This document shows, one piece after another, positions 29,754 through 56,917 of a DNA stretch of 64,000 bases. The stretch is from an uncultured Gammaproteobacteria bacterium (GTDB lineage Bacteria > Patescibacteriota > Patescibacteriia > Patescibacteriales > UBA12465). Location of the stretch: contig CAZXEE010000001.1 in the NCBI GenBank assembly GCA_964639785.1, positions 115,832 through 179,831 on the forward strand, in the 5' to 3' direction. The notes under the pieces are model-generated. The model saw nothing but the letters and a program-made list of their open reading frames with translations. It had not been told where the DNA came from and searched no databases. Position 1 is the stretch's first letter. Each line of letters begins with the position of its first letter. A program made the translations under genes and the position numbers.

Positions 29754-29787
29754 TAAAAAAAGACCGGAATTGATCCGGTCTTTTTTG
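29754..29787. terminator. Bidirectional rho-independent terminator
   Basis: The stem agaccgga / tccggtct has a 5-nt loop, with an A-run before and a T-run after. It lies between convergent genes. Confidence 0.8.
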
Positions 29788-29798
29788 TTTGCTTGTTT

Positions 29799-31049
29799 TT
29801 AGAAGAAAGGGTTTTTCCAGCTAGCACTGTCGTAATCATAATCTTTCCGATCGTAAAGTACTTTGTATTTTCGATACTCGGCATTGCCGGCGTCGTATTG
29901 CTTCTTGAAATCTTTTCTTCTTTCTGCGCATGAACGGCAACTTCCTAACAAATGATTTCGGATTTTTTTAGTGCTAAGATTATACTTTGTACCTGACGAG
30001 CACACCGGATTTTCAAAATGCCATAATTCGTTATAACTTTTAGTGGCCGCGATTAGAATAACAAAGCCGTTTTCACCCATACAATCTTGTAGTCTCAGTT
30101 GGGATAAGGCAGATCCGGTCCAATCTTTTTCAAAAGCTTGGATATCAACAGCGGCTCCAGAAAAATGGGATCCAGTAGCCTTGGAATTAGGGCAGCTAGC
30201 ATTACAGCCGGTAGCAGTATAGTTAGGAGCGCATTTGCCATCGGAAATGAAATAAGGCTTGCAGTTAGCTTTGCCGTTGAATATGCTTAATTGTTGAGCA
30301 TAAGTCCTGAGGCCGTCGTTAACTACAATAAGATATTTATTAGGCCATTTTCTATCCATGCAATTGAAAACTGCTTCTAATTTGTCAGCCGTTTCACCGC
30401 AGAGCTGTTTGCCATTGGTAGTGACATTCTTGTGGGCGGCAATTTTTTTTATTCCGTTAGTACAGCTGCCGGAGGCAGTTAGAGTAACGCCATTGATTGT
30501 TAATTCTTCAATCGGTACCATCGGTACTGGTTCTTCGTTGACTATGCTTAACTCAATCGGTTTTAATCCGACCAGATTCGGATTTATTTCGTTTAATAGG
30601 ATGTAGGAGGTGAACATTATCAGCATGCCGGTTAGGGCTCCTGTAATCCAAGATTTTGCTTCTGATATTCTGGTAGCATTGCCCAGTGATGTCAGATAGA
30701 TAACGCCGCCGATCATAAGGGCTAGAGCTGCCAGGATGCCAACAATACCGATAGCATAATTATAGATAGCCTTGATATAGATTGCTATCCAAGGCAGGCT
30801 ACAGGAAGTCTTGTCTCCTTCGGTGGTGCAGGTGGCTGGGGTATCTGAGGCCAGCTTGTTTAGTCCTGGAAATTTTATTTGCAGGTTCAATATCGGATCT
30901 AATACTATGAATGGTTTTCTGGGGGTAGTGGTAGCCGTAGTTGAGGCGGTGGTTGATTGGGCTTTAGTGATGGTTGGAATAAATAGTAGCATCATCAAGA
31001 ATAAAGACACCAATAAAAGCCGGCTTATTTTTATTCGGATATTATCCAT
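29799..31049 (-). CDS. VirB2/T4SS-pilin-like membrane anchor fused to an M15 (VanY/LAS-type) peptidoglycan peptidase domain
   Basis: After a signal peptide comes the anchor module WIAIYIKAIYNYAIGIVGILAALALMIGGVIYL..EAKSWITGALTGMLIMF. The C-terminal part has HFSGAAVD (HxxGxAxD) and ELWH (ExxH) zinc-peptidase motifs and many Cys. Confidence 0.65.
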   Translation of the reverse strand: MDNIRIKISRLLLVSLFLMMLLFIPTITKAQSTTASTTATTTPRKPFIVLDPILNLQIKFPGLNKLASDTPATCTTEGDKTSCSLPWIAIYIKAIYNYAIGIVGILAALALMIGGVIYLTSLGNATRISEAKSWITGALTGMLIMFTSYILLNEINPNLVGLKPIELSIVNEEPVPMVPIEELTINGVTLTASGSCTNGIKKIAAHKNVTTNGKQLCGETADKLEAVFNCMDRKWPNKYLIVVNDGLRTYAQQLSIFNGKANCKPYFISDGKCAPNYTATGCNASCPNSKATGSHFSGAAVDIQAFEKDWTGSALSQLRLQDCMGENGFVILIAATKSYNELWHFENPVCSSGTKYNLSTKKIRNHLLGSCRSCAERRKDFKKQYDAGNAEYRKYKVLYDRKDYDYDSASWKNPFF

Positions 31050-31054: not shown

Positions 31055-31990
31055 TTATAATTGATACTTCTTGATATTCTCATTTGCTAACTTCTGGATA
31101 TGTTCCAAGTCGTATTGGTATTTTCCATTAGTGAAGAGATGCTTGAATCGGCCTTGGGCTTGCAGATATTCCTCAACTTTCGGTGTTGGCTTTGAAACGT
31201 TCGATCTATTAGTCAAAACTCCGTTCTCGTATTCCAGTAGAGGGTAGAGCCCGGTGTTGACTGCTAATTTGCCCATTTTGACGGCTTGATTCAGACCTAT
31301 CTTCCAGCCGGGAACGCAAGGGGAAAGGATTTGGATATAGGCTGGGCCGTCGAATGACAAAGCCTTTTTAACTTTGTTGGTAATATCATCCGGGAAGCCG
31401 GCTGTGCTTTGCGCAACGTATTTTACTCCATGGGCTAGGGCGATAGCGATCATGTCCTTTTTCATCTGTTTGGAGCCGGGAAGTAGCGGACAACTAACGT
31501 TAGCCTCAGCGCAATCGCTATTAGGAGAGGTAGTCGTACTAGCGCCATATGGCGTAGCTCCGGAAGCTTGGATGCCGGTGTTAGAATAGGCTTCGGTATC
31601 GTAGCAGATATAGAGGATATTATCACCTCGTTCCCACATGCCGCTCACTAGTCCGATGCCGATATCAAAAGTGCCGCCATCGCCTCCTTGGGCAATGACT
31701 TTAATATTCTTTTTACCTTGTTTGTTTAAGGCGGCTCGGATACCTGAAGCGACTGCGCTGGAATTCTCAAATAGAGAATGGATCCAAGGTAAGCCCCAAG
31801 AGCTGGTCGGATAGGCGGTAGTGGTAACTTCCAGGCAGCCGGTAGCATTAGTTAGGATAGTGTCTTTATCTAAGGCTCGCATGACCGCCCGAACAGCTAT
31901 TAATTGGCCGCAACCGGCACAGGCATTGTGTCCCGGGCAGATATTTTCTATTTTTTTATTTTCCATGTTGTTTTGTTTATTTACATACAT
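31055..31990 (-). CDS. porB: 2-oxoacid (pyruvate):ferredoxin oxidoreductase, beta subunit (TPP-binding)
   Basis: It has the CPGHxACAGCG motif and the GDGG TPP-binding motif. The start is either 31990 (10-nt overlap with the upstream gene) or 31966. Confidence 0.88.
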   Translation of the reverse strand: MYVNKQNNMENKKIENICPGHNACAGCGQLIAVRAVMRALDKDTILTNATGCLEVTTTAYPTSSWGLPWIHSLFENSSAVASGIRAALNKQGKKNIKVIAQGGDGGTFDIGIGLVSGMWERGDNILYICYDTEAYSNTGIQASGATPYGASTTTSPNSDCAEANVSCPLLPGSKQMKKDMIAIALAHGVKYVAQSTAGFPDDITNKVKKALSFDGPAYIQILSPCVPGWKIGLNQAVKMGKLAVNTGLYPLLEYENGVLTNRSNVSKPTPKVEEYLQAQGRFKHLFTNGKYQYDLEHIQKLANENIKKYQL

Positions 31991-33372
31991 TCTAGATCGT
32001 AACTTGCAGGATTGAATTTATCGGTTGGGAAGCACCATTCATCACCATCAAGGCAGCATCCAGAGGCACATTCGCTATTGTAATCACAAGCTTCTCCAGT
32101 GTTTAGTTTCCCATTGATTGTTGCTGGTTTTCCCCAACACATAGTTATGTCTGGGTCTGGGTCGTTAAAATTATTACAATCACCATTACTTACGTTTCCA
32201 CATAGTCCATCGCTTCCAGCGCATTCAAAGTCCTTTCTATTGTTATAACAAACCTCTCCAGAGCTTAAGCATTTTTTACAAAGGCCGCTGACACAATATC
32301 CGCTTCCCAGTGGCTTACCTGAATCGAACTTGCAAGGAGTTCCCTCGCTCTCCCCTTTGCACTGGTCTTTTAAAGGGTCGTTATCACTGAAAGTAGCAGT
32401 ACACTTTCCTGGAGAAAGCGTGGCGGTGGCATCATCTTGATAATAGTATAATACGCCCCCTAAAGTTTTGGTAACGGTTTTTTTGAATTCTTGGCATTTA
32501 GCCTCTGCTTTTGGTCTGTCATTTGATTGGATGTTTCCAAAACTCTTACTGTCCTTACCGTGGTCACCAGTTTTTTTGTCAATTAATTCTCCGATAACGT
32601 TACAGCACCAGTAGACGCCGGAATCATCAATATTAATGACATCTGAACCGCTAACTTGGGCATCTAATCCATAAGCCGTTGCTGAACAGCAGCATTGAGG
32701 TTGTTTGTTGACTTTTTTATTATCAGCTGTCCCCTCGTCCTTTAATTGGTCACTAGTCGGGCTAGGGGTGCTGGTGCAATATGTTCCTCCGTTAACAGCA
32801 ACTTCTTTGTTTGCGCAACCGCTTACCGGAGTGTTTAATGTAGTGCCGCCTGAGTTGATAATGCTAGTATAGGATATTTTCCAAGTGCAATTTTCATAAA
32901 TTAGAGGCAGGGCTATTTCTTTGATGTTCTCTACTGGCGCAACCTTTAGGTCTACTAAGGCTGGATTAATGGTCCGTAGCAAGATAACGGCAGTTACAAC
33001 TAACACCATACCGGTCAAGCTGCTAGTGATGAATGATTTAGCTTGTTCTATCTTAGAACTTGATCCAGCGGCAGTTAACCATATTATTCCGCCTATCATC
33101 AGCATCATGGCGGCCACGATTCCGACTATTCCGACCCCGTAGTTATAGATAGCGCTGATATAGCGAGCGATCGGTCCGGTGCTGTATTCCAAAGTAGAAG
33201 AAACCTTCGCAGTAAATGATGATCCCGGAATCGAAACTTGAGGGGTAAATATTACCGGATCTTCGTTTAAAGCCTTGGCGCTATTGGAAAAAGACAGCAG
33301 ACCGATGACGGTTAATAGCATCATTAGTAATACTGAACCAGTCTTTTTGCTTTTTAATTTAAAATTGTTCAT
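31981..33372 (-). CDS. VirB2/T4SS-pilin-like membrane anchor fused to a cysteine-rich ectodomain (paralog B)
   Basis: It has a signal peptide and the anchor module ARYISAIYNYGVGIVGIVAAMMLMIGGIIWLTAAGSSSKIEQAKS..LTGMVLVVTAVILL. The tail is about 310 aa with 26 Cys by my count, including CCC and CC doublets. Confidence 0.65.
   Translation of the reverse strand: MNNFKLKSKKTGSVLLMMLLTVIGLLSFSNSAKALNEDPVIFTPQVSIPGSSFTAKVSSTLEYSTGPIARYISAIYNYGVGIVGIVAAMMLMIGGIIWLTAAGSSSKIEQAKSFITSSLTGMVLVVTAVILLRTINPALVDLKVAPVENIKEIALPLIYENCTWKISYTSIINSGGTTLNTPVSGCANKEVAVNGGTYCTSTPSPTSDQLKDEGTADNKKVNKQPQCCCSATAYGLDAQVSGSDVINIDDSGVYWCCNVIGELIDKKTGDHGKDSKSFGNIQSNDRPKAEAKCQEFKKTVTKTLGGVLYYYQDDATATLSPGKCTATFSDNDPLKDQCKGESEGTPCKFDSGKPLGSGYCVSGLCKKCLSSGEVCYNNRKDFECAGSDGLCGNVSNGDCNNFNDPDPDITMCWGKPATINGKLNTGEACDYNSECASGCCLDGDEWCFPTDKFNPASYDLECM
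33035..33250 (-). repeat. Copy 1 of a 216-nt near-identical segment shared by the two Cys-rich paralogs
   Basis: It aligns base-for-base with 34210-34425 with only scattered substitutions. It encodes the anchor module. Confidence 0.9.
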
Positions 33373-33407
33373 AGTTTTTAAATATCCTATTAGTATTTGT
33401 TTGAATA

Positions 33408-34544
33408 TTATTGTATGCAGCTATCTGGACTGCCGCCTTGTCCACTACCGCTACCGCCTTTTTGTTGTCCTGGCATACAATATCTACTGCCGGAACTAGC
33501 GCAACAAAGACCTGTACAGCAACTGTCATAAGTACAGCCCCTTCCTACTCTGTTTTCGCAGCCATCTACATTTTCTTTGACTTCTCCATAGCAATAGCCT
33601 TTGCCATTTATTTGGACACATTCAGCATCATCGGCGATTAAGTCTCCGTCTTCTTTTGATAATCCACAGAATGGAGCATTCATGCCAAGACATTGATAAT
33701 CATAGGTGCAATTAACCCCCCATTGAGCCGCCCGTATACAAGGTAGGCATTTTCCATTGTAACAATAACCTGTACCGCTAGTTGATGTTATGGAGGTCCG
33801 GCATTCTAAGCCGTTAGTTTTTCCGGCGCACGAAGCGTTCATATTGTTGCTATCCGTAGCGCTTTGTCCGCAGCAAGAAATATCTTTATTTTGGTTTAAG
33901 CATTCAACTTTTCTACTTAGATATTCTTGCTTGCCAAGTTTTTCTTCACAGAGAGCGGTATCGACTAGAATTGGTGCTTCTGTTACGGAACAAGAAGCGA
34001 CATCGCCCCACCCGGAACAGATTGTTCCGATTTTTGCATCTTTTGGCAATTGCGACATGTCAGTGATCATATAAGTCCTTCCTACCGGTCTTTCGGCTAT
34101 ATTTTCAACTTGAGTGGTCTTCAGATCCACCAAGGCCGGATTGACGGTCCGTAGCAAGATAACGGCGGTCATAACTAATACCATGCCGACTAAGCTGCTG
34201 CCGATAATAGATTTAGCTTGTTCTATCTTAGAACTTGATCCAGCGGCAGTTAACCATATTATTCCGCCTATCATCAGCATCATGGCGGCTACGATTCCGA
34301 CTATCCCGACGCCGTAGTTATAAAAAGCGCTGATATAGCGAGCGATCGGTCCGGTGCTGTATTCCAGAGTAGAAGAAACCTTAGCAGTGAATGACGATCC
34401 TGGAATCGAGACTTGAGGGGTAAATTTGATAGGTTCTTCATTCAAGGCTTCAGCTCCGTTTATACATGAAAATACGCCAGTAATAGTTAAAGCTAATACT
34501 GCCAATATCAAAATATTTTTATTTTTTTGATAAAGGTTTTTCAT
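33408..34544 (-). CDS. VirB2/T4SS-pilin-like membrane anchor fused to a cysteine-rich ectodomain (paralog A)
   Basis: It has the same anchor module as paralog B. The tail is about 230 aa with 24 Cys by my count (GYCYNGKCLPC, CTYDSCCTGLCC). Confidence 0.65.
   Translation of the reverse strand: MKNLYQKNKNILILAVLALTITGVFSCINGAEALNEEPIKFTPQVSIPGSSFTAKVSSTLEYSTGPIARYISAFYNYGVGIVGIVAAMMLMIGGIIWLTAAGSSSKIEQAKSIIGSSLVGMVLVMTAVILLRTVNPALVDLKTTQVENIAERPVGRTYMITDMSQLPKDAKIGTICSGWGDVASCSVTEAPILVDTALCEEKLGKQEYLSRKVECLNQNKDISCCGQSATDSNNMNASCAGKTNGLECRTSITSTSGTGYCYNGKCLPCIRAAQWGVNCTYDYQCLGMNAPFCGLSKEDGDLIADDAECVQINGKGYCYGEVKENVDGCENRVGRGCTYDSCCTGLCCASSGSRYCMPGQQKGGSGSGQGGSPDSCIQ
34210..34425 (-). repeat. 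Copy 2 of the 216-nt near-identical segment
   Basis: See 33035-33250. Confidence 0.9.
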
Positions 34545-34550
34545 TTCATT

Positions 34551-34709
34551 TTAAATATTCCAATTAAGGATGATCAGTAAGAGTATCTGGATGGCGAAGA
34601 TGACGATGAATAGGATAACAAAAAATTCCGGCCATCCTTTCAGGATAATCGGCTTGTTTTGGTTCTTTAATTCTTTTCTTTTTTTAAGCTTGAAATGAAT
34701 CTTATTCAT
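34551..34709 (-). CDS. Possible 52-aa single-TM micro-protein between porA and the Cys-rich genes (below the ORF-track cutoff)
   Basis: I translated it by hand as MNKIHFKLKKRKELKNQNKPIILKGWPEFFVILFIVIFAIQILLLIILNWNI. It lies 4 nt after the porA stop and 6 nt before the next start. Confidence 0.4.
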   Translation of the reverse strand: MNKIHFKLKKRKELKNQNKPIILKGWPEFFVILFIVIFAIQILLLIILNWNI

Positions 34710-34713
34710 ATTT

Positions 34714-35901
34714 TTAATTATTTATGAATTTAGCTTTTGAGTTCTTAGATGCTTTTATTATATCATTTATAATCTTTTTTATCACCTGCTTGGTGATATC
34801 CCGTCCGCCTAATCCGACGATATAATCCTGGACAATGGCTTTAGATTTTTGGTCGGCTACCAACGATTTAATCTCTAAGCTCAAGGGTCCTTCTTGACCC
34901 AGGCTTAAAGCCTTCTCAATGACAGCGATCTTCTGGCTGCGGGAGATGATTTTGGCAATCGCTTCTTTTGGGAAAGGGCGATAAGTCTTGATTTTCAGGA
35001 TACCGATCTTTTTCTCCAGCTTATTTTCTCGCACGACGGTGCGGATAGTTCCTAAAACCGAACCCATAGCTATCAGCATAGCCTGGGGTTTGGCTGGCCC
35101 TTCGTATCCTATCAATCCATTATTTTCAGTTTGGTTGCGGCGTTCGCCGGTTTCGAACATTTTTTGGTAATTGGAATATTCCTGGTTGATGATCTTTTGG
35201 CTGGATACCAGGTCCTCATGCAGTTCTTGGCGGATTTCCATATAATCACTAGGGGAAGCGAAGGCCCCGATAGTGACCGGATTATTCGGGTCTAGATAGG
35301 TGCCGCTGGCTGGTTGGTATTTTCCGAGATATTTCTGGATAGCTTTTTTATCCGGAATCCAGACGGGTTCATAGGAATGGGTAATGACGTAGCCGTCGAC
35401 ATTGACCATGACCGGTAATTTGGTGGCTTCAGCTATCTTGTAAGCCATGATGTGTTGGTTAATAGCTTCTTGGTGGTCTTCGGCAAAAAGTAAGATCCAA
35501 CCGCTGTCCCGGATAGTCATGACGTCTTGCTGGTCGTTCCAGATATTGATTGGAGCTGATACAGCCCGGTTGGCGCAGGTCATGACTAATGGCAACCTTA
35601 ATCCGGCAATATTGAAAATAACTTCAGTCATCAGCAATAATCCTTGGGAGCTGGTAGCGCTATAGACTCGAGAACCGGTGGCACTGGCGCCTAAAATTAT
35701 CGAGGCGGCAGCGAATTCGCTTTCAGCTCGGACATATTCATAATCCGCTTCGCCGTCAGCTTTGAATTTGGCCAAGTCTTCGACGATATGGGTTTGAGGA
35801 GTGATGGGGTAGGCGGAGATGACATCCGGAGCGATGTTCTTGATCGTCAGGGCAATGGCATGGGAGCCTTCGATTATTTGGAGCGATTTTGGCTTAGTCA
35901 T
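34714..35901 (-). CDS. porA: 2-oxoacid (pyruvate):ferredoxin oxidoreductase, alpha subunit
   Basis: 395 aa. The N-terminus EGSHAIA..AYPITPQT is typical of POR/KOR alpha subunits. Confidence 0.88.
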   Translation of the reverse strand: MTKPKSLQIIEGSHAIALTIKNIAPDVISAYPITPQTHIVEDLAKFKADGEADYEYVRAESEFAAASIILGASATGSRVYSATSSQGLLLMTEVIFNIAGLRLPLVMTCANRAVSAPINIWNDQQDVMTIRDSGWILLFAEDHQEAINQHIMAYKIAEATKLPVMVNVDGYVITHSYEPVWIPDKKAIQKYLGKYQPASGTYLDPNNPVTIGAFASPSDYMEIRQELHEDLVSSQKIINQEYSNYQKMFETGERRNQTENNGLIGYEGPAKPQAMLIAMGSVLGTIRTVVRENKLEKKIGILKIKTYRPFPKEAIAKIISRSQKIAVIEKALSLGQEGPLSLEIKSLVADQKSKAIVQDYIVGLGGRDITKQVIKKIINDIIKASKNSKAKFINN

Positions 35902-35912
35902 ATATTATATTT

Positions 35913-36176
35913 TTATTTTTCTTCAGGCTTCATGATTATGGCTTTGACTGGACATTCCGAAGCGCAGAGGCCGCAGCCTTTGCAATAGTCATAATCAATC
36001 TTGGCTTTTGCCTGGCCGTTTGCTTTAATCATTTCAATAGTTCCTTCTGGACAAACTTTGGTGCAAATAGCGCAGCCGATACAAACCTTGGTATCGATTT
36101 CCGGTCGGAAAGTCCGCCAAGATCCGGTCTTGTTGCGGCGGGAAGTATTCGGTTGGACGATTAGATTCTTTTTCAT
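35913..36176 (-). CDS. porD: 2-oxoacid:ferredoxin oxidoreductase, delta subunit (2x[4Fe-4S] ferredoxin)
   Basis: It has two CxxCxxCxxxCP motifs (CIGCAICTKVCP, CKGCGLCASECP). Confidence 0.88.
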   Translation of the reverse strand: MKKNLIVQPNTSRRNKTGSWRTFRPEIDTKVCIGCAICTKVCPEGTIEMIKANGQAKAKIDYDYCKGCGLCASECPVKAIIMKPEEK

Positions 36177-36181
36177 AGTTG

Positions 36182-36760
36182 TTAGTTGATAGTGTTGTAA
36201 GCTTCATCGGCCGCAGCTTGGTTTTTGGTAATGATGTCTTGGCCCTTACTGGCAAATTTGTCAGCGATAGCCAGGTTGAGAGATTTTAAGCTGATATGGC
36301 CGCTTAATTTGGAAAAAGCTCCCAATATGACGGTGTTCATTAGGTTTTTGCCGAATATCCGGAGCGCTATCTTGGTGGCATCGACAGTCTTGATGCGGGA
36401 AAGGCTTGGGATAAATTTTTGGATTTTCTGCTGTTTGATATGCTCCAGTATCTCAGCCGGACTTTTGCCGGTATTGATCATGATTGTAGTATTCTTGTTA
36501 GCTCCGAACAGGACGTCTACTGAAGCGAGCAAACTGGCATCCTGGATGATGATAAAATCCGGTTGGTAGATATGTTCACGGATAATTATCGGTTCTTGGT
36601 CTAAGCGGGCAAAAGCTTGGATTGGAGCGCCGCTTCTTTCAACACCAAAAGAAGGGAAAGCTTGGGAATAGAGGCCGCCCTGGAAGCCGGCGATAGCTAT
36701 TAGTTCGGCGGCAGTGACTACGCCTTGGCCGCCACGGCCATGGATGCGGATCTGGATCAT
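36182..36760 (-). CDS. porG: 2-oxoacid:ferredoxin oxidoreductase, gamma subunit
   Basis: The N-terminus IRIHGRGGQGVVTAAELIA is typical of POR gamma subunits. Confidence 0.88.
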   Translation of the reverse strand: MIQIRIHGRGGQGVVTAAELIAIAGFQGGLYSQAFPSFGVERSGAPIQAFARLDQEPIIIREHIYQPDFIIIQDASLLASVDVLFGANKNTTIMINTGKSPAEILEHIKQQKIQKFIPSLSRIKTVDATKIALRIFGKNLMNTVILGAFSKLSGHISLKSLNLAIADKFASKGQDIITKNQAAADEAYNTIN

Positions 36761-36761: not shown

Positions 36762-37487
36762 TTATTTTTGTAAGATAGTTTCGATTATATTTATAAAATC
36801 AGTGCGATTGATGGCGCCCTCTAATTTATAGCCGTTAATCATGAAGCTCGGAGTCTTGGTGATGCCGATTGTATCGGCATCTTCCACGTCTTTTCTGATT
36901 TGGGATATATATTTTTTTGAGCTCAGGCAAGTATTGAAAGATTTGACGTCCAGTCCCAGCTGTTGGGCGATGACTGGTAAATCGGTTAAGGCTATCTGGT
37001 CTTGATTGGTGAATAATTTGTCATGCATGTTCCAGAATTTGCCTTGTTCTCCGGCACAACGAGCAGCCAGAGATAGGTCGAGGGAATTATCATGTCCCAG
37101 ATAATCCCGGTAGATGATTTTGACCTGATCTTTGTATTTTATGCCTAATTCTCTGATGATCGGGAATTCGTCCTTGCAATAAGGGCAGGCAAAATCGGAA
37201 AATTCGACAATAGTAATTTGAGGCGAGCTGGTTCCTAACCAGTAATTATCTTGGCCTTCAATCAGTAGCTTGTCAGCCTTAACCTTTTCGGCAGTATTGA
37301 TTGAGGTTTTTTGAGCGTTGATATCTTTGACGGTTTGGAAGATATAGATGCCGCTGGCTCCGATGAAGCTGACGAATAGGAAGAGGCAGAGCAGGAATAA
37401 TATCCCCCACCATTTTTTATACCATTTAGTCGGTTCAGGATTTTCTAATTGGCGCCGTAATTCGGCAATTCGATCTTGGAGTCCCAT
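36762..37487 (-). CDS. Membrane-anchored DsbA-like thiol:disulfide oxidoreductase
   Basis: It has an N-terminal TM anchor and a thioredoxin-fold active site, FSDFACPYCKDEF (CPYC). Its stop lies 1 nt from the porG start. Confidence 0.78.
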   Translation of the reverse strand: MGLQDRIAELRRQLENPEPTKWYKKWWGILFLLCLFLFVSFIGASGIYIFQTVKDINAQKTSINTAEKVKADKLLIEGQDNYWLGTSSPQITIVEFSDFACPYCKDEFPIIRELGIKYKDQVKIIYRDYLGHDNSLDLSLAARCAGEQGKFWNMHDKLFTNQDQIALTDLPVIAQQLGLDVKSFNTCLSSKKYISQIRKDVEDADTIGITKTPSFMINGYKLEGAINRTDFINIIETILQK

Positions 37488-37549
37488 TGCTAAAATAAGC
37501 TTATTAAATTATAATTTTATTGTATCATTTTCTGTTAAAAAATACTATT

Positions 37550-38137
37550 ATGAGGCGCTTCGCCTTGATTCTAACCTTATCTCTTTTTCTTCTCTTTCCG
37601 CGGCTTAGCCAAGCGGCTGATTTGGATGCTGATTCCGACGGTTTGAGCGATGCCTTGGAGGCTAAATTCAAGACAGACCAAACTAATCCTGATTCAGATG
37701 GCGATGGCTATCCTGATGGTTTAGAAATCAAGAACGGTTATGATCCTTTGTCTGGAGAAGGTCAGAAATTGAAGAAGCGGATTGAAGTCAATATCAAGAC
37801 CCAGAAGCTGCAGTATTTTTTGGGAGGGGTTAATATGGGGGAATACGTCGTTTCCACCGGCAAGAAAAGCACCCCGACTCCAAAGGGATCATTTGCGATC
37901 TTGAATAAAGCCCTCCGGCCTAAATCTAAAACTTATGGCTTGTACATGCCGTATTGGATGGGGTTGTCAGCGGCCGGAGTGGGAATCCACGAGTTACCGG
38001 AATGGGGTAAAGGGATTAAGGAAGGAGCCAGTCATTTAGGCCAGCCGGTTTCCCATGGCTGCATCCGTCTGGGCGTCGGTCCGGCCAAGAAGATTTATGA
38101 ATGGGCTGAGGTGGGAACGGAAGTAAAAGTTTATTAA
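37550..38137 (+). CDS. L,D-transpeptidase (YkuD domain) with N-terminal Ca-binding thrombospondin type 3-like repeats
   Basis: It has a signal peptide (..LSQA/AD), DADSDGLSD and DSDGDGYPD repeats, and the catalytic motif SHGCIRL. Confidence 0.85.
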   Translation: MRRFALILTLSLFLLFPRLSQAADLDADSDGLSDALEAKFKTDQTNPDSDGDGYPDGLEIKNGYDPLSGEGQKLKKRIEVNIKTQKLQYFLGGVNMGEYVVSTGKKSTPTPKGSFAILNKALRPKSKTYGLYMPYWMGLSAAGVGIHELPEWGKGIKEGASHLGQPVSHGCIRLGVGPAKKIYEWAEVGTEVKVY

Positions 38138-38151: not shown

Positions 38152-38205
38152 AGAAACTTTATAAAGTTTCTACATTTTGACAAACTTTATAAAGTTTTGT
38201 AGAAT
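38152..38205 (+). promoter_or_regulatory. Promoter with twin palindromic operators upstream of the HTH-Fic gene
   Basis: A perfect 20-bp palindrome AGAAACTTTATAAAGTTTCT lies at 38152-38171, and a near-copy ACAAACTTTATAAAGTTTTGT at 38180-38200. TTGACA (38177-38182), a 17-nt spacer and TAGAAT (38200-38205) overlap the second operator. Confidence 0.6.
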
Positions 38206-38224
38206 AGGATTATTAATCAATCTT

Positions 38225-39148
38225 ATGAATTTAAGGGAAAAATTAAGAATAATCCAAAAAGTATCTGGACTTACCCAGACTGAATTAGCAGCTAAGATCG
38301 GGGTGTCTTTTGTGGCATTTAATAATTGGTGGACCGGAAAATCCCAGCCGCGTCAAAGTAAGCTGACGGTTATTGATGAGCTATATAAGGAATTGACCGG
38401 AGAAAAGATAATTCCGGACAATGTTTTGTTAGCTAAGAAATCATTGATTTCCAACCAGTCAAAGAAGCACCCTAATATCTTAAAACTGATCGTTTCCAAT
38501 CCGGATATCTATGACCAGTTTCTGTTGTCATTAACTTATAATTCGAACAAGATAGAGGGCTCGACTTTATCAGAAAATGAAACGGCTGACATCTTGTTCA
38601 ATGATCGGGCCTTATCAAATAAGAGCCTGATAGAGCAATTGGAGGTTAAAAATCATCAGGCCGCATTGCAGTATTTGTTCAATTATTTGAAGTTAAGTAA
38701 AAAGATCAATAAAGAACTGATCTTGAAGCTCCACTCTATTTTATTAAACGGGATTAGGGATGATGCCGGTTTTCTTAGGAATCATGGCGTGCGAATCGTC
38801 GGTTCTAATGTACCGACGGCTAATTATTTGAAGTTACCGGAATTAGTAAATAATTTAGTGGAAGATATTAATAGAAAAAATAAAGATGTTATTGCTTTGG
38901 TAGCTAATATTCATGCTCGATTTGAACAGATCCATCCTTTTGGTGACGGTAATGGTCGGATTGGTCGGTTGATTATGGCTGCCATGCTAATAAAGGCCAA
39001 TTTTCCTCCGGCTGTTGTTCGGCAGGAAATTAAAAGGCAGTATTATGAGTGCTTAAATGCGGCTCAACTCAAAGGAGAGTTCAGCTGTCTGGAAGATTTT
39101 ATCTGCGAAGCTGTGTCTGAAGGTTTCGATATAATTAATAGGGGTTAA
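38225..39148 (+). CDS. Fic/DOC family protein with N-terminal XRE-type HTH
   Basis: It has the HTH segment LTQTELAAKIGVSFVAFNNW, the inhibitory-helix-like SNKIEG and the Fic motif HPFGDGNGRIGR. The track's TTG 38177 is actually the -35 box. Confidence 0.88.
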   Translation: MNLREKLRIIQKVSGLTQTELAAKIGVSFVAFNNWWTGKSQPRQSKLTVIDELYKELTGEKIIPDNVLLAKKSLISNQSKKHPNILKLIVSNPDIYDQFLLSLTYNSNKIEGSTLSENETADILFNDRALSNKSLIEQLEVKNHQAALQYLFNYLKLSKKINKELILKLHSILLNGIRDDAGFLRNHGVRIVGSNVPTANYLKLPELVNNLVEDINRKNKDVIALVANIHARFEQIHPFGDGNGRIGRLIMAAMLIKANFPPAVVRQEIKRQYYECLNAAQLKGEFSCLEDFICEAVSEGFDIINRG

Positions 39149-42513: not shown

Positions 42514-43401
42514 ATGGCTAGAACACTAAATGTTTTAAATAAGGTTAATTCCTTGCGTGAAAGATATTATCAGGCTTCTATCAACAAAGAGGCGCTTATT
42601 AAGCTGATATCTGAAACTGAGGTGGCGGAACAAGTCTATAATTCCAATGCTATTGAAAATAGCACCTTAACCTTAAAAGAAACTGAAAAGATCTTACTGC
42701 AGATTGACCTGGATCGGTTTATTACCGAACGGGAGATTTTTGAAACTAAAAATTTAGCCCGAGTCGTGTCTTATATAGATAAGAAAGCCAAAGACCAAGA
42801 ACTTACCTTGGATATGATCTTATCGCTTCATAAAATGCTTTTGGCTAATATCAGAGATGATGTAGCTGGACGGTTTAGACAAGACGGTGAATATGTCCGT
42901 GTTGGTAACCATATCGCAGCTAATCCGTCAGAGGTGACAGGGCTCTTACAAAAGATGTTGGCCGAATATAATGCTACTAGTCATGAAAATATTATCAAGC
43001 GGATAGCTAAGTTACATCTGACATTGGAAAATATTCATCCCTTTATCGACGGCAATGGACGCATTGGTCGGGTAATTAATAATTATTTGTTGGTTAGAGA
43101 AGGGTTTGTTCCTATTAATATAAAATTTATTGATCGGGAAAGATATTATGAAGCTTTTAGGGAATTTGATGTTGATGGCAAAACGGCCATCATGGAAGAA
43201 ATAGTCGGGAAAGCTATTACTAATAGTTATTATAAAAGATTAGCTTATTTAGAGGGTAGGCGGATTATCAGTTTGGCGGATTATGCTAAAGAGAATCAGC
43301 TTTCTCATTCTAATTTATTAAATAAAGCTAATCGTCAGACAATTGAAGCTTTTCTGGAAAATAATACTTGGAAGATCGGAGTGCTTTCTGATAATAAATA
43401 A
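42514..43401 (+). CDS. Fic/DOC family protein
   Basis: It has the Fic motif HPFIDGNGRIGR and the inhibitory-helix-like SNAIEN. The C-terminal approximately 50 aa could be a small DNA-binding domain. Confidence 0.88.
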   Translation: MARTLNVLNKVNSLRERYYQASINKEALIKLISETEVAEQVYNSNAIENSTLTLKETEKILLQIDLDRFITEREIFETKNLARVVSYIDKKAKDQELTLDMILSLHKMLLANIRDDVAGRFRQDGEYVRVGNHIAANPSEVTGLLQKMLAEYNATSHENIIKRIAKLHLTLENIHPFIDGNGRIGRVINNYLLVREGFVPINIKFIDRERYYEAFREFDVDGKTAIMEEIVGKAITNSYYKRLAYLEGRRIISLADYAKENQLSHSNLLNKANRQTIEAFLENNTWKIGVLSDNK

Positions 43402-44966: not shown

Positions 44967-47900
44967 ATGAAAAAGCCAACCAAGAGGCTCTTTTTGAAGA
45001 GCATGCTCCTGATCCCAGTATTAGTTTTAGTTTTTGTGGCGACGCCAATCAAGCCGGCAGCGGCTCAAATCCCCGCTGATACCATCGGCGGTCCGGTTCA
45101 GGTCGTGATGAAGGTTGTTAGTCAGGTTACCAAGAAGTTGGATGCGGCTTTAAAGAAGGTTGGCTCCAATATGGTTCAGACAGCCATCACTAATTCTTTG
45201 AAGCGGGTAGCTTATGATACGGCTACTTGGATTGGTTCTGGCGCTGCTGGTCAGAAGGCTCAGTTTGCGACTGAAGGAACTGGCGCTTATCTTTTGAGTG
45301 TGGCTGATAGTGCGGCTGGCGATTATATCGATGAGTTTGCCAAGAATCTGAATGTCAATTTCTGTGAGCCTGACTTGAATGTTAAGGTTAAGATCGGTTT
45401 GGGCTTAGTGGATAGTGTCGAAGGCGGCAGCAAGATTAAAGATTCTAAGTGTAAAGCTAGCACCATGTTCAAGGCTTGGAAATCTGATATCAATGAAAAA
45501 TATAAGGCAATGACCAGTCCGACCTTTTTAAAGGATATGTCTAGCATGTTCGAGGTTGGAGGTAGTGATTTGACAGCCAGTTTGGAGGTTATGGATGGCA
45601 TCCAGAAGACGGTTTATGACAAGAAGGAGAAGGAAAAATTAGATCTGAGTATCGAAGGTTGGCTGCCTAACAAAAATATTGGTGGTAAGACTTCAGAGGC
45701 CCCAGGAAATGCCAAAATGCAATTGGAACAAGCAACTAAGAATACTTCTGAGGCTCAGAAGGTTAATATTTCCCAGAGTCCGGTAACTGATGCTGCTAAG
45801 GTTTTCTTGAATACTTTAGCTACTACGGCTTTTAATAAAGCTTTGAAGAGTTTGGCTGGGGGTGATATCAAAGGCACTCTTTCCGCTTTGACCTTAGGTA
45901 TTTATAAAGATAAGACTGACGCGGAAGTGGCAGAGTTGATAGCTAATGGCGGTTCATCCTCGTTGGCAGCAAATACCAATGGAACTTCTTGCTTGAATGA
46001 TCCGAATTGCGATCCGAATGTCTTCCAGGGTATCTCGGCTGTCAAATCTAATTTAGCTGAAATACTCAAGCCGAGTTTTGATTCCCGTGGCGATTATGAT
46101 ATTTTGAGCGAATTATCAGTTTGCTCCGATTCGACTAAGCCGGGACCAACCGAATGTATCTTGGATGAGCAATTCAGTTCGGCTATCAGCGATCACAAGA
46201 CCGTCATTGAAGCTATAAAGGATGGATCGTTGAATAAGACCTGGAGATTGAAGCGGGATGTCGATTTTAACCAAGGCTATTCTTTACGGTCTTTGTTAGT
46301 TTTGCGTAAATTCCGGATTATCCCTGTCGGTTGGGAAACTGCTTTGATTAAAGCGGAAGAGAATAATGCTAACGTGACCCTGATGGATATGGTTTCCTGT
46401 TTTGATCCTAATGATAATTATAATGAGTTCAGCCAAGGGTTTACTCCTTCTACCTGGTGCCAGGGATTGATCGATCCGAATTGGGTGTTGAAAGCCCCTT
46501 TAAATTATTGCAAACGCCAAGGTTATGGCAATCAGATCTTGGATAAGACTTTGATTGCAAAACAGACTGCTGGCAGCGAAGTTATCCCGGAAGAGATCAT
46601 TATGACCAGGGCTGATGAATATTGCGCTGATGAACAGAGCTGTATCAAAGAAAAGTCTGATGGCACTTGCGAAGCTTATGGCTATTGTACTGAAGAGAAG
46701 CGGACTTGGGACTTCGATTCTGATTCTTGCGATGCGATTTATAATACTTGCCAGAGATTTATAAAGACTAATGGAGCTAGCGTTTCTTATTTGGAAAATA
46801 CTATCGATTACAGCACTTGTAATGTTGATAATGCCGGTTGCCGGCCTTATGCCGTTTCCGGCTCTTATGATGGTTCTTCCGATAAGATTACTTGGAATTC
46901 TTCTAACCATATTTATTTTTCTAAGAAGGCTGAAGCTTGTGATAGCAGTCAGGAAGGTTGCAATGAATTAATCCGAATTATTCCAGAGGCCGGTCATAAT
47001 TTCCTGGTTAATTCTGATTTTGAACAAGACCTTAATATCGGTTCTTGGAATACTAATATTGATATTAATAATTCTTCTTCTACCAATAGTGTTTCTACTG
47101 TGGTTGATGGTTATTTTAGTGATACTTCTATTTCTGTCGGTGGTATATTGAAAAAAAATGTTGTCGTTGGACCGAATGATTATAATATCTCCGGTCGGAA
47201 TTACACTTTCTCTTTTTATGCTAAAAACTGCACTCTTGGCGACAAAGCAATTTTAGGCGGTGCTAATGTTGATGATCAAACCATTAATATGGGGGATGGA
47301 AATGAGTGGGCTTATTACAGTGTTAATTATAATTTCCCGCTTGGGTTATCCGATAATCATGTCTTTTTTTCTATCATTTCTAATAGTTGCCAAGTTGATC
47401 GTTTGAAATTAGAGATGTCAGGTGTTGGCACCCAGTATAGCAATTATCGGGATAACAGCTTAATTTATCAGAAATTGATTCCTGACTATTTAGCTTCGGA
47501 GTGTTATGTAAATTCTAATCCAGCTAGTCCTGATTATCGTTTGAAGCCTAATGCTTCAAACAAGTGTTCCGGTTATGCTCGGCGTTGTAATGCTTCGGAG
47601 GTTGATTGTGATCTGTATAAATCGGTTCGTGACGACTTCGTTCTGCCAGCTCGGGTAACTCCGAATGATTCTTGTTTTGCGGAGTGTGATGGTTATGATT
47701 CTTATATCAAGAAGGCGACCGCCTTTGCTAATCCGGAGTTGTCTAATTTTATCCCTAATAGCGCGACTAAGTGTGGCGCCAATGCTGTCGGCTGCACCGA
47801 ATTTACTAATTTGGATTCAGTGGCTAAGGGCGGAGAAGGCAAGGAGTATTATAGCTTCTTGCGTCAATGTATCAAGCCGGATAATAATGTCTGCGGGGTT

Positions 47901-50900
47901 TTCTACAGTTGGGGCAGTTCTAGTTCCGGTTATCAATTACAGCCTTCTAAGCTGAAAGCTTCGGCCGATAAGCCAGAACTTACTGCCGGAACTTTTGATG
48001 CTAATCGTAATCATGTGCTTGATGGCGCTGTTGTCTGCAGCGAAGCGATTTTCAATTCAGCTCCTTCCAGTTCAGCTTACAATTCTGATTGCCGCCAGTT
48101 CTATAATAAGGATGGTGTCATCTTCTATGCTTTGTATTCTAAAACTATCACTTGTTCCAATGATTGCCATCCATACCGTTTGAGCGAAACTCCGATTGAT
48201 GAGAGTATTACTTCAGCCGCTGCTTGTACTGGCGCTGACAAGAATTGGGATGCCAGTAGCACTGCTTGTATGGTTTGTAAGAATGGCGGTGTTTGGGATA
48301 ACACCCAATCAGCTTGTATCTATCAGGCTATTCCAGGTGAAGGTCGTTCTTGCGCCTCGACTGAAAATGGTTGTCGCGAATATAATGGCAATCATGGTAA
48401 TACTTCGAGGATTATTAATTCATATGATTTTGAGAGCAGCCAAGTTTGGGGCAGCTATTGTAACGATGCTTCATCTCTGAGTTCTGATTCTATCAATAAG
48501 AATGGTCACTCTTTGAACTATAATTATAATGGCGGTTCTTGCGGTACTAATAATTTTAATCTGGCGCCGGTAGTAGTCTCTAGCCGGCATAGCGACCCAA
48601 GCCTATTGGCTGTTATCAAGAACTTCTGGAGCCGAGTAATCAAGGGAGCTGAAGCGCAGTCTAATAATGCCTTGCCAAGCCATGGTATCGGTATAACTGT
48701 CGGCAAGACTGTCAACCAGAATTCTGCTTATGTCTTAAGATTCCTGGCTAAGGCCACCTCTAATGTTTCTATTAATGCTTATCTAGCTAATGGTACAGTG
48801 GCTTCTCAATTTAACGTTAATGCTCAGAATAATGGTTCTGTTTCTATTTCCGGTAATAATGAGTGGAAGATGTATACCGTCAATCTAGCCGCCTTAGACC
48901 ATGAGGTTACCGACCAGGAGGCTCTGATTATTTCCGCTTCCGGCGGTTTGCTGCTTGATGATATCACCCTGACCGAGGTGACTGATCGTTTTTATCTGAT
49001 CAAGGATTCATGGGTGACTCCGGATTCTTGCTACTACGATACTGCCAACCAGTATCAAGGCGTTAACTATAACTTAGGTTGCGGCGCTTATACTAATCGC
49101 GCTAATGCTACTTCATATCTCCGTAATTTCAGCCATCTCTGTTCTGATTCTTCCGCCGGTTGTGAATTGATGGCTTTGACTAATAATTCTTCCGATCCTG
49201 GCGTTCAGACTTTCAATGAATCCGGCACAGCCAATAACCAATGTGACGGCTCCGACGGCCCTTCTTGTGTCCAAGTTCCGGCTGACAAGATGGCCTATGT
49301 CATCTATGACACTACCAAGCAATGCGGTTCGGAAAATAAAGGCTGTTCCCGTTTAGGCCAGCAGACCGTTACCAACCAGGATGTTACCGTCCAGAACCTG
49401 TATGCCGATACTTACATCAAGAATAATCCGGATAAATATGACACCATCCTTTGCAGCGATAATGAAGTCGGTTGCGACGAATGGAAATATCTTGACGGCC
49501 AATCTAGCTACTTCAAGGACCCAGGCGATAATGTCTGTGAATGGCGCCGTCCGGTCAATGCTACCGGTATGAACTTGCCACAGAAATGGTACAAGAGGGC
49601 TATTAAGCGTTGCGATTTTGACAACAATGGCAAGATCAATATTGATGTTAATGGCAATATTACTGAATCTCAGAATAAGCTTTGTAATTCTGACACCGAT
49701 TGTAATTATAAGCCTTGTATCTTAGACAAGAATGATTATCTGTGCGAAGTCGATTCTTTGAAAACTATCGGCTTGGGCGGCGGCAATTTAGTCTACCAAC
49801 CGAAAACCATGGTCGGTGTCTGTGAAGCCAAGGCTTCCGGTTGTACTGAGTATGTCGACCCGGTCAGCGAATTCTCACCGAATAATATCGTCAATCCAGG
49901 CTGGGGAGATATCAACAAGGATGGCATCAAGGGTGATGGCTGGTCCACTTCTACTTTCCAAACTGTTCCGATGCAAAAGCAGACCGTCTATCTCTTGAAG
50001 AATAAGCTATATAGCTTGTCGGCTGTAGCTTCCGGCGCTACACAGGATACTATTTTGTCCTGTCCGGCTTCTGTCAGGGTTTTGCAGGCTGACAACAGCT
50101 TTGCCGCTCCGACTAACACTATCACTATCGACAATGTGGTGGCTAACAAGAATGTCCTCTTCAATTCTTTGAACAATGTCGCTTGCACCATCTATGGCGG
50201 TGAGAATAACAAGACGATCAGCCTGCGCGGCACTATCGTCGACTACAAGCTGTTGACGGGAGTTGATAAGACGACTTGTAACGGAGCAGCTAGCTTCGAT
50301 TCTGGTTGCATCTTGTTTAATGAAAGAAAACAGAACGGATCTTCCGGATTGAGCGCTATGACTTGGAATGCTTATGGCGGTTCATATAATTCTGCCTCTC
50401 CAATTACTCCGACCAATTTGGCTGATGCCGATTCCAATGTTTTGATTAAGGTCAAACCGAACCGGGTCTGTTCCAAATGGCTGTCTTGTATGAGCATGGG
50501 CATCGATTCCACTACCGGCGAGGAAGTCTGCTATGCCTTGGGAGAGTGCGACAAGCTGAACGATTTTGGCCGTTGCCAGAGTTTCGTTACCAAACCTGAA
50601 ATCCAGCATACTTTCGATTCCGGCTCCGACAGGAATATCACTGGCTACTCTAAGATGAATAACTATTACCTGTCTAATATGAGTGAGGTAGGTGAGGATT
50701 TGTCAGGCAATCCTAACGGTGGTAGCTGGGGGTTTGAGAGTACCAGTACTCCAGGATTTACAATTAATAATTATAACAAAGCCATTACAGATTTTTCCGT
50801 CATCGTTGGGGCTATAGATTATCCGGCTGTCGGCAAGGGCGTAGCCTTGATTGGCGGCAATGCTTCTACTACTCCTTCGAACCAAATAGCATCGCTAAGC

Positions 50901-52958: not shown

Positions 52959-54158
52959 ATGAAAACATTAAGAGTTTTCTTCATCACATTGCTCGTTGCT
53001 TTGATTTGCCCATTTTTTGTCTCTGCCCAGACATACACTTTTGAAGAGATGACTAACCCCGACCCCAATTCTAATAATTTAGTTTGTATAACTAACGTCG
53101 GTAATGTCTTGTTCGCTGGGGGAGATAATGGAACTCTCCTCAAATATAATGGATCTGCCTGGCTGCAGATTGCTAATTCCCAATCCGGACAGATTAAATC
53201 AATTTATGCGGCTAGCGAAAATGATGTCTGGATGACTTTTGATAATGCCATATTCCATTATAATGGATCAACTATTTCGGCTGTTAATATCGGGACCTCA
53301 AACCACATTATGGAAATTATTGGATTTGCTGCCAACGATATTTATGCCTGCGGTTCATTTGGTACTTTTTACCATTATAATGGATCAAATTGGTCTGCGA
53401 TTAATGGCATTCCTGGTGGTGTTAGCTTGGGCGACATGTGTGGGTTGTCCAATGATATTTATCTTACCGGTGAAGATGAAGCATCGCCTTATACCAGAAG
53501 GATGTTTCATTATGATGGTGTTAATTTAACCGAAGTGGTCTCTGGGGTTTATGGTTATGGATGGTATGATATATGGTCTCCGGATAACAATTTGTTTTAT
53601 TTGGGTGGTCGTGAGCTTTATAAATTCGATAAAACTGCCGGAACCGTAGATCAGATCTTTGATGGTTATAATAACCCATTTGGCTTTAGCGCTAATTGTA
53701 TCATTGATTTTTGGAATAGTGGCATGTCAAATGTTGATAGTATCCGAATCTATAACGGTACTACCTGGAAAACGCTTCAGGATCCGATTTATTCCGTTAG
53801 GGATCTATGTTCGCCAACCAATAATCCTAACAATATCTTTATAGTTAGTGATAATGGAGTAATCCGTCATATGGTTATAACTACCGGCATTGAGGAAACA
53901 GCCTTGAATCCAACAAGATTCGACGTTTATCCCAACCCGGCCACTGATCTGGTGACCATTGATCTGAATTTCGACCAGAAGACCGATACCAAGATTGAAC
54001 TTTTCGATGTCGTTGGGCAACGACTTGAACTGATTTCTGACTTCGGGGGTAACGAAGATCAGATCACTTTCAATGTTGGTGAACTGCCTCATGGACTTTA
54101 CCTGATAAAGGTAACTGACCGTGAAGGTAGAGTGGTTAGTAAAAAACTGACCAAATAA
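52959..54158 (+). CDS. Secreted beta-propeller-like repeat protein with T9SS-type (Por_Secre_tail-like) C-terminal sorting domain
   Basis: It has a signal peptide (..FFVSA/QT) and repeats (Y/F)(N/D)G(S/T)xWxx(I/V). The C-terminal approximately 80 aa, VYPNPATDLVTIDL..ELFDVVGQ..LPHGLYLIKV..GRVVSKKLTK, matches the T9SS CTD pattern. Confidence 0.75.
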   Translation: MKTLRVFFITLLVALICPFFVSAQTYTFEEMTNPDPNSNNLVCITNVGNVLFAGGDNGTLLKYNGSAWLQIANSQSGQIKSIYAASENDVWMTFDNAIFHYNGSTISAVNIGTSNHIMEIIGFAANDIYACGSFGTFYHYNGSNWSAINGIPGGVSLGDMCGLSNDIYLTGEDEASPYTRRMFHYDGVNLTEVVSGVYGYGWYDIWSPDNNLFYLGGRELYKFDKTAGTVDQIFDGYNNPFGFSANCIIDFWNSGMSNVDSIRIYNGTTWKTLQDPIYSVRDLCSPTNNPNNIFIVSDNGVIRHMVITTGIEETALNPTRFDVYPNPATDLVTIDLNFDQKTDTKIELFDVVGQRLELISDFGGNEDQITFNVGELPHGLYLIKVTDREGRVVSKKLTK

Positions 54159-54215
54159 AAAAGCAAAAGAAGCAAAAAGTCTCTTACGATTCTAAGAATT
54201 GTTGAAGGGATTAAG

Positions 54216-55843: not shown

Positions 55844-55845
55844 TT

Positions 55846-56904: not shown

Positions 56905-56917
56905 TAAGTTTAATCCT

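Follow-up and report, generated by a model that had tools for sequence, protein, structure and literature searches.

A predicted VanY/LdcB-type peptidase carried on a VirB2-like pilin hairpin in Patescibacteria

The stretch analysed here, a window of 64 kb (64,000 nucleotides of contig CAZXEE010000001.1), carries on its minus strand an open reading frame (ORF) at 29799..31049 that starts with ATG and encodes a protein of 416 amino acids (aa). In the predicted product, hereafter the 'target', a two-helix hairpin of the kind found in pilins of type IV secretion systems (T4SS) is followed by a domain that appears to be a zinc peptidase of the M15, or VanY/LdcB, type. Both components are of known kinds; it is their fusion that is new, in a rare family. 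An initial annotation of the window had given the ORF its exact limits and had reported two motifs, HFSGAAVD and ELWH, which are indeed present at aa 295-302 and 341-344; a third motif, LRTYAQQ, was absent from it. The gene and the parts of its product are the following.

29799..31049, minus strand: whole gene, a fusion of pilin hairpin and M15 peptidase (stop codon at 29799-29801)
30960..31049, minus strand: predicted Sec signal peptide, aa 1-30, with a basic n-region, a hydrophobic core at aa 4-31 and a cleavage-like site between TKA and QS (from hydropathy)
30792..30959, minus strand: N-terminal segment, predicted extracytoplasmic, aa 31-86, with a Thr/Ser-rich stretch, a conserved KPF..L.P...LQVKIPGL motif and a C74-x8-C83 pair (from the family alignment)
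30585..30791, minus strand: hydrophobic hairpin of two helices, T4SS_pilin (VirB2-like) in type, at aa 87-155; its short polar loop reads LTSLGNATRISEAKS
30465..30584, minus strand: linker, acidic and Pro-rich, at aa 156-195, expected to be disordered (predicted local distance difference test score, pLDDT, <50 for aa 159-195)
30000..30464, minus strand: predicted LAS/M15B (VanY/LdcB-like) zinc peptidase domain, aa 196-350, alpha/beta, with 9 Cys
30291..30311, minus strand: LRTYAQQ, aa 247-253, with R248 and Q253, which do not vary within the family; R248 aligns with Arg120 of SpLdcB
30144..30167, minus strand: HFSGAAVD, aa 295-302, with the predicted zinc ligands H295 and D302 (H-x6-D, as H153/D160 of SpLdcB)
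30018..30029, minus strand: ELWH, aa 341-344, with E341, predicted to be catalytic, and H344, predicted to be the third zinc ligand (as E204/H207 of SpLdcB; W343 is aligned with W206)
29802..29999, minus strand: basic Tyr/Asp-rich C-terminal tail, aa 351-416

Three segments stand out in the hydropathy profile of the target, at aa 4-31, 88-124 and 134-152. The signal-peptide region forms a helix at aa 2-22 in the AlphaFold model, and cleavage would take place at the site listed. Because the signal peptide is followed by two membrane helices, both the N-terminal segment, which is 44-53% identical between Falkowbacteria orthologues, and the C-terminal domain should lie outside the cytoplasm. This location is consistent with the 13 Cys of the protein (two ahead of the hairpin and 11 behind it), taken together with the DsbA-like gene found at the head of the operon. 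A Cys-rich insertion at aa ~257-293 separates the Arg helix of the M15 domain from its first His. The tail, which is found only in the closest relatives, P0001 and P0002, in the family alignment, contains 16 Lys or Arg, 8 Asp or Glu, 7 Tyr and 2 Cys, and is modelled with helices at aa 360-399 at low to moderate confidence. The initial annotation had spoken of many Cys and of a basic, Tyr/Asp-rich tail, and these counts agree with both descriptions.

The nature of the C-terminal domain emerged from its relatives. Compared directly with Pfam, NCBIfam and the PDB sequences, the target or its C-terminal domain gave no M15 match (in Pfam none even at E <= 10), and a search of PHROGs with the target returned a marginal match to phrog_2649, 'endolysin' (E 0.011). 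Homologue searches limited by k-mers recovered very few relatives, and P0005 and P0006 came to light only with an exhaustive phmmer search. When the C-terminal domain was compared in this way with 1.84 billion representatives, these two proteins were found with whole-library E-values of 2e-4 and 1e-3, respectively, and both have the same pilin hairpin as the target at their N-terminus. P0004, one of the five phmmer matches, was discarded as a repetitive unrelated protein. P0006 is encoded at the syntenic position in another Falkowbacterium and aligns pairwise with the target at E 2e-13; it scores 28.6 bits on the Pfam VanY model (threshold 25) and also touches Peptidase_M15, which is the VanX model. 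Pfam VanY is matched by 5 of the 11 family members.

A profile built from nine family sequences was then informative. Searched against all PDB sequences, it gave 12 matches at E <= 1, all of them M15/LAS enzymes: BsLdcB (4ox3, 1.8e-6), SpLdcB (~1e-4), VanY_B (~1e-3), Ply500 (4e-3), and further matches including LysB4, BaLdcB and VanX. With hhalign, the probability of the match to a BsLdcB fragment was 94.6%. The structure models point in the same direction. For the AlphaFold model of the domain (pLDDT 60, predicted template modelling score 0.67), the 30 best PDB matches in Foldseek were all LAS proteins, among them VanY_B, VanXY, Ply500, LysB4, LdcB, T5 endolysin, ChiX, VanX and Hedgehog; the full-length model (pLDDT 60) matched VanY_B with a probability of 1.00 and a TM-target of 0.50-0.52, and a search of BFVD was led by phage M15 endolysins. 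We conclude that the M15/VanY-type assignment proposed in the initial annotation, which a domain search with the target alone does not return, is well supported overall. Neither of the two outcomes that would have spoken against it, a lack of any significant M15 or LAS match and a model in which the zinc ligands fail to converge, was observed, the match being reached through the family and the predicted convergence resting on the alignment to LdcB. A phage or prophage origin of the domain, as an endolysin, was rejected in view of the housekeeping synteny seen in several genomes, the signal peptide and the membrane hairpin.

In the alignment of the family profile with LdcB, the R-x4-Q, H-x2-G-x-A-x-D and E-x-W-H motifs are in register. 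The crystal structure of SpLdcB identifies R120 as the Arg that binds the substrate carboxylate, H153, D160 and H207 as the zinc ligands, and E204 as the catalytic Glu, and the zinc motif of LAS enzymes is given as H-x(3-6)-D ... H (PMC4087270). The target has H295-x6-D302 and H344, the E-x-x-H motif as E341-L-W-H344, and the S/G-x-R-x4-Q motif with R248 and Q253 at its Arg and Gln positions. R248, Q253, H295, G298, A300, D302, E341, W343 and H344 are invariant in 11 family members, and the pattern H..G.A.D followed by E.[WY]H 20-80 residues further on has a single occurrence when the window is translated in six frames. Judged by their in-register alignment to the LdcB ligands, H295, D302 and H344 would converge on one zinc site. 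That all predicted zinc and catalytic residues are invariant, although the family core is only ~30% identical, argues for the retention of catalysis.

The hairpin was examined in a similar way. The Pfam T4SS_pilin model (PF18895) matches the target at aa 92-152 with an E-value of 4.7e-4 and 20.6 bits, the gathering cut-off being 26.6. Two paralogues encoded upstream, at 31981-33372 and 33408-34544, score 33.1 and 32.0 bits, both above threshold, and the target hairpin (aa 87-155) is 61% identical to that of the first (BLASTP E 8e-28). Since this paralogue passes the threshold, the target can be considered to share the two-helix anchor of the paralogues, as the initial annotation had stated; PF18895 matches all three proteins, and 9 of the 11 family members. 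The target also has the layout of T4SS_pilin proteins (signal peptide, then a pair of hydrophobic helices linked by a short polar loop), and AlphaFold places the helices at aa 87-120 and 125-155 with a pLDDT of 76-85. At 416 aa, with ~260 residues beyond the hairpin, it is not a small hairpin-only pilin. Calling the anchor VirB2-like, as had been proposed, is thus justified at the level of Pfam profiles. Between Falkowbacteria orthologues, identity is 57-81% in the hairpin and 31-34% in the catalytic core; the higher conservation of the hairpin suggests that it does more than hold the enzyme in the membrane.

The target is the terminal gene of a minus-strand run headed by a DsbA-like thioredoxin gene. 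From the head of the run to its end, the other features are the following.

36762..37487, minus strand: DsbA-like thioredoxin, first gene of the run
36182-36760, minus strand: gamma subunit of a 2-oxoacid:ferredoxin oxidoreductase (POR)
35913-36176, minus strand: POR delta, ferredoxin
34714-35901, minus strand: POR alpha (porA)
34551-34709, minus strand: 52-aa hydrophobic ORF between porA and the first pilin-fusion gene, called in L003 too
33408..34544, minus strand: tandem paralogue (378 aa) with signal peptide, T4SS_pilin hairpin and a diverged Cys-rich C-terminal domain
31981..33372, minus strand: 463-aa paralogue in which signal peptide and T4SS_pilin hairpin precede a Cys-rich C-terminal domain with no assigned fold
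31055..31990, minus strand: porB, thiamine pyrophosphate-binding beta subunit of the 2-oxoacid:ferredoxin oxidoreductase, directly upstream of the target
29756..29786: bidirectional intrinsic-terminator hairpin with a 13-bp stem between A and T runs, which ends the operon as well as the RNase H gene convergent with it

The target starts 5 nt past the porB stop and ends 12 nt ahead of the terminator, beyond which lies the convergent RNase H gene; it had rightly been described as the last gene of the operon. An identical 416-aa protein is encoded on two further metagenomic contigs, with unchanged neighbours. In view of these independent contigs, and of an architecture kept in 11 family members, a mis-called fusion of genes or an assembly artefact was rejected.

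In the operon of the four-subunit POR, porA and porB are split by genes for exported proteins with a pilin hairpin and Cys-rich domains, the pilin-M15 gene coming after porB (31055-36760, minus strand). This interleaving of genes for the cytoplasmic POR with genes for surface proteins is kept in divergent Falkowbacteria (the window, L003, L005, L007 and L009). The two tandem paralogues (31981-33372 and 33408-34544) are 77% identical in their first 150 aa, which comprise signal peptide and hairpin, and 27% identical in their Cys-rich C-terminal domains. The window has two copies of this pilin and Cys-rich paralogue where its relatives have one, and the pair looks like a recent duplication with rapid divergence of the cargo. 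Neither Cys-rich domain had a match in Pfam or among the PDB sequences, and the 52-aa ORF at 34551-34709 gave no family match.

At 37520-38137 on the plus strand, divergent from the operon, lies a gene whose product is a YkuD L,D-transpeptidase that includes a TSP3 repeat; this adjacency is kept in L005 and L007 and absent in L009. The remainder of the window holds housekeeping genes, namely rpoB/C, LepA, RecJ, MurJ, LeuRS, FtsK and a Mur ligase. A T4SS_pilin of canonical size (161 aa, 38.1 bits, above threshold) is encoded at 6740-7225 on the plus strand, between genes for a polysaccharide flippase and a glycogen-synthase-like protein, with no T4SS gene nearby. Four other observations concern the window at large. 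A 2609-aa ORF (44967-52796, plus strand) has no significant Pfam domain and a sub-threshold match to CBM_4_9 only. The protein encoded after it (52959-54158, plus strand) bears a Por_Secre_tail, that is, a C-terminal sorting domain of the type IX secretion system kind, which is unexpected in a Patescibacterium. Two Fic/DOC-domain genes (38177-39148 and 42514-43401, both plus strand), one of them with an HTH_3 domain, flank AP-endonuclease-like and LeuRS genes. Finally, GC content drops from ~43% to 27-35% at 54000-60000, with a minimum at 58-60 kb, and this stretch may be a foreign or intergenic-rich segment.

The family is small: about 12 relatives were found among more than 5 billion proteins, and genome and metagenome scans added two more loci. 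GTDB genomes and JGI metagenomes scanned with the family pattern yielded only Falkowbacteria loci that were already known. The nearest database relative is annotated as belonging to a Candidatus Falkowbacteria metagenome-assembled genome, and the window is accordingly assigned to a Patescibacteria chromosome. In every full-length member, the hairpin is followed by the M15 domain. Public annotation describes P0007 as 'pilin' (NCBI) and P0002 as 'hypothetical protein'. In the Falkowbacteria loci (L003-L009, L013 and L017), gene order is invariable, running DsbA, porG, porD, porA, the pilin and Cys-rich fusion, porB and the pilin-M15 fusion, past which come the convergent RNase H, RecJ, LepA and MurJ genes. 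In most of them, a divergent YkuD L,D-transpeptidase gene lies upstream.

The context differs in another lineage, represented by L010 and L016. There, the pilin-M15 gene lies in a compact T4SS-like cluster (2596-11320 in L010, 2453-11233 in L016) that encodes, in this order, a 355-365-aa protein, PrgI (VirB3), a TraC-like protein, a VirB4-like ATPase, three unknown proteins, a DsbA-like thioredoxin and the pilin-M15 fusion, after which comes RadA. A scan of L010 with the family hidden Markov model (HMM) detected the fusion as the sole ORF with a pilin hairpin there. Proximity to T4SS genes was thus seen for distant family members, P0012 and P0008. A third situation was met in L011 (1299-8417 of logan contig SRR12367304_45052), where five genes for pilin-hairpin fusions lie in a row behind a DsbA gene (family HMM E-values of 1e-25 to 1e-32). 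Their C-terminal domains are, in turn, of unknown type, M15 (P0013), Amidase_2 (E 1.6e-10), 3D (E 5.5e-4, below the gathering threshold) and Peptidase_M23 (E 2e-9). A DsbA-like gene lies upstream of the pilin-M15 gene in all six independent contexts (the window, L005, L007, L009, L010/L016 and L011). At the level of predicted domains, therefore, a pilin-type hairpin recurs as a carrier for several classes of peptidoglycan hydrolase, always with a DsbA gene nearby.

How does this protein compare with known systems? The best profile and fold matches are to LdcB (DacB/YodJ) and VanY (MEROPS M15B, PF02557, LAS), with which the target shares the catalytic layout R...Q / H-x6-D / E-x2-H. These enzymes are extracytoplasmic, tethered to the membrane and active on stem peptides, as is predicted for the target. 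Tethering in itself is ordinary, because LdcB and VanY are likewise held outside the membrane; VanY is membrane-bound. LdcB and other LD-carboxypeptidases of Gram-positive bacteria are attached to the membrane exterior (PMC4087270), and the statement in the initial annotation that M15 enzymes are normally soluble fails for this type. The tether, however, differs, being a single N-terminal transmembrane helix or a lipid in LdcB and VanY and a signal peptide plus pilin-type hairpin in the target. The segment from the Arg to the first His is also 14 residues longer in the target and Cys-rich, there are 11 Cys past the hairpin as well as the basic Tyr-rich tail and, unlike LdcB and VanY, the target by itself misses the Pfam VanY threshold.

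With pilins of the VirB2/TrbC type (PF18895, including the Patescibacteria arrays), the target has in common the signal peptide, the two hydrophobic helices, the short polar loop and a profile match, which in the target stays below the gathering cut-off. Like the VirB2-like arrays, it has tandem or near-tandem paralogues of divergent sequence, and its relatives adjoin VirB3/VirB4. Canonical VirB2 pilins, however, consist of little beyond the hairpin, whereas the target adds ~260 residues including a predicted enzyme and has no T4SS gene among the ORFs of at least 120 aa in its window. The VirB2-like pilins of Patescibacteria occur in arrays of 2-11 genes and have been treated as small pilins (PMC12102498, PMC10633639, PMC12857230). 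By function, the nearest analogues are the VirB1-like hydrolases of Gram-positive conjugation systems (for example PrgK, TraG of pIP501, CwlT and TcpG). They open the wall locally (PMC12102498), are membrane-anchored and are encoded together with T4SS genes, and the relatives in L010 and L016 are similarly placed. These hydrolases, however, have SLT/lysozyme, CHAP or NlpC/P60 domains, a single transmembrane anchor and no homology to pilins, whereas the target domain is M15/LAS; a VirB1-like role would be a functional analogy, not homology. Finally, phage M15 endolysins (the L-Ala-D-Glu peptidases Ply500 and Ply118, LysB4 and the T5 endolysin) and ChiX have the LAS fold and zinc site that are predicted for the target. 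Endolysins are soluble, usually with a wall-binding domain, whereas the target is predicted to be membrane-tethered and has no phage context, and profile scores are better for LdcB/VanY than for M15C enzymes. Full-text literature searches found no description of pilin-hydrolase fusions.

We favour, with moderate confidence, an explanation in which the target is a membrane-tethered stem-peptide peptidase acting on the cell's own wall, its hairpin probably guiding it to the place where a T4SS or pilus is assembled, for a role like that of VirB1. The signal peptide (aa 1-30) would direct export through Sec, and the helices homologous to T4SS_pilin (aa 87-155) would insert with both termini outside and the short basic loop in the cytoplasm. 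The C-terminal domain would then be held outside the membrane on an acidic linker of ~40 residues, and the DsbA-like protein, whose gene heads the operon, would oxidise its 11 Cys. By alignment with LdcB, H295, D302 and H344 would bind Zn2+, E341 would serve as catalytic acid/base and R248 would hold the substrate carboxylate. Close to the cell's own membrane, the enzyme would most likely remove the last D-Ala of pentapeptide or tetrapeptide stems, or make a related cut in the stem peptide. Docked by its hairpin at the T4SS or pilus-assembly site, the enzyme would open or remodel the wall locally, in analogy to VirB1. Docking is suggested by the conservation of the hairpin above that of the enzyme, and by the fusion being the only pilin-like gene in the VirB3-VirB4 cluster of another lineage (scanned on L010); it is also in line with the Falkowbacteria genomes in the retrieved rows of Table S1 of PMC12102498, which are listed as VirB4-positive. 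That the substrate would be the cell's own wall is suggested by the synteny of the gene, which in divergent Falkowbacteria keeps its chromosomal place amid housekeeping genes, by the nearby genes for MurJ and the divergent YkuD L,D-transpeptidase, and by the usual anchoring of LdcB-type enzymes outside the membrane (PMC4087270).

Several results weigh against this explanation. The target by itself has no significant match to an M15 model or a solved structure, and the M15 assignment is transitive, going through a family of only ~12 sequences. The E-values in Foldseek were 2e-3 to 1e-2, for models with a pLDDT of ~60 in which the loop at aa 257-293 is unmodelled; such weak values can be ascribed to the limited quality of the models. 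The target hairpin is below the Pfam gathering cut-off, and its high identity may be due in part to a bias in hydrophobic composition. For the hairpin part of the full-length model, Foldseek returned generic helical hairpins only (such as AcrA and ATP synthase subunit c) and no VirB2, TraA or TrbC, a result that is uninformative, neither supporting nor refuting homology to pilins. Among the window ORFs of at least 120 aa, over the whole 64 kb, no T4SS gene was found. Given the Falkowbacteria genomes listed as VirB4-positive (PMC12102498), a T4SS is probably encoded elsewhere in the genome of the target.

The same hairpin could alternatively make the target an armed pilin. The T4SS would extract it as a polymerising pilin or pilus-associated subunit, and the M15 domain, on a filament or stub, would cut host peptidoglycan to give an epibiont access, together with other pilin-borne hydrolases. 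F-type pili, in which both pilin termini face outward and C-terminal additions are tolerated, make such an arrangement conceivable, and the L011 fusions with their four wall-hydrolase domains look like a full degradative toolkit. The exclusive place of the fusion among pilin-like genes of the VirB3/VirB4 cluster (scanned on L010) and the conservation of the hairpin above the enzyme fit an armed pilin as well. VirB2-like arrays occur widely among Patescibacteria, where VirB1 homologues are mostly unassociated with virB4, and in Southlakia epibionticum they are essential (PMC12102498, PMC10633639, PMC12857230). However, a filament of any Patescibacterial T4SS is mentioned in reviews only as a possibility (PMC12857230), and a 260-residue domain on each subunit would probably hinder helical packing. 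In addition, the Falkowbacteria gene in the window is part of a metabolic operon and distant from any T4SS gene, and VanY and LdcB, the closest solved relatives, trim stems as carboxypeptidases and do not lyse walls. We therefore regard an armed pilin as possible, if unlikely; both the filament display and the attack on the wall of a host that the initial annotation had put forward are speculation. Broader still, and to us improbable, is the proposition that the hairpin is a working pilin module and a general carrier in Patescibacteria. A T4SS filament or stub with interchangeable cargo, comprising four hydrolase classes (M15, amidase, M23 and 3D) and Cys-rich binding domains, would then drill through the wall of the host or that of the cell itself.

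Conversely, the anchor might be passive and the protein a housekeeping carboxypeptidase with no link to a T4SS, converting pentapeptides to tetrapeptides (VanY-like) to feed YkuD, or tetrapeptides to tripeptides (LdcB-like). In Enterococcus faecium, the tetrapeptide donors of an L,D-transpeptidase come from a VanY-type DD-carboxypeptidase. In favour of a housekeeping role, the operon has the YkuD gene (37520-38137) as its divergent neighbour, as it does in L005 and L007, MurJ and a Mur ligase are encoded within the window, the gene has a stable position among housekeeping genes, and the top PDB matches are stem-trimming carboxypeptidases. We nevertheless give this explanation little credence. 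A single transmembrane helix would suffice as an anchor, and to combine a signal peptide with a conserved hairpin of the pilin type is an elaborate alternative; constraint is also stronger on the hairpin than on the enzyme. The module is found again joined to unrelated cargo domains and within VirB4 clusters, and in L009 YkuD is not beside the operon. Lastly, the LAS-fold domain could be non-catalytic, either a binding domain on a surface protein, as in Hedgehog N-terminal domains, or a decayed enzyme. Hedgehog domains are among the fold matches, and the target domain, with its large Cys-rich insertion and unique tail, has diverged too far for Pfam VanY. The invariance of R248, H295, D302, E341 and H344 in a core that is ~30% identical makes this barely plausible.

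Patescibacteria (the Candidate Phyla Radiation, or CPR) account for a substantial part of the diversity of bacteria, and those in cultivation live attached to other microbes. Their T4SS and VirB2-like arrays are essential in the one species tested, and their function has been described as completely unknown (PMC11665869, PMC12857230). Our analysis suggests that some Patescibacterial 'pilins' are in fact carriers of peptidoglycan-cutting enzymes. A match to PF18895 alone is consequently not sufficient grounds for a plain 'pilin' annotation, such as the one given by NCBI to P0007. The VanY/LdcB family, for its part, gains a divergent branch, predicted to be disulfide-rich, that current Pfam models miss. 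Were the general-carrier proposition true, an enzymatically armed pilus would explain why pilin arrays are essential in epibionts and why their VirB1 homologues are often not near virB4. More generally, the fusion offers a concrete and testable proposal for the role of some members of the pilin repertoire, namely to open the wall locally for the machine, or to breach the wall of the host.

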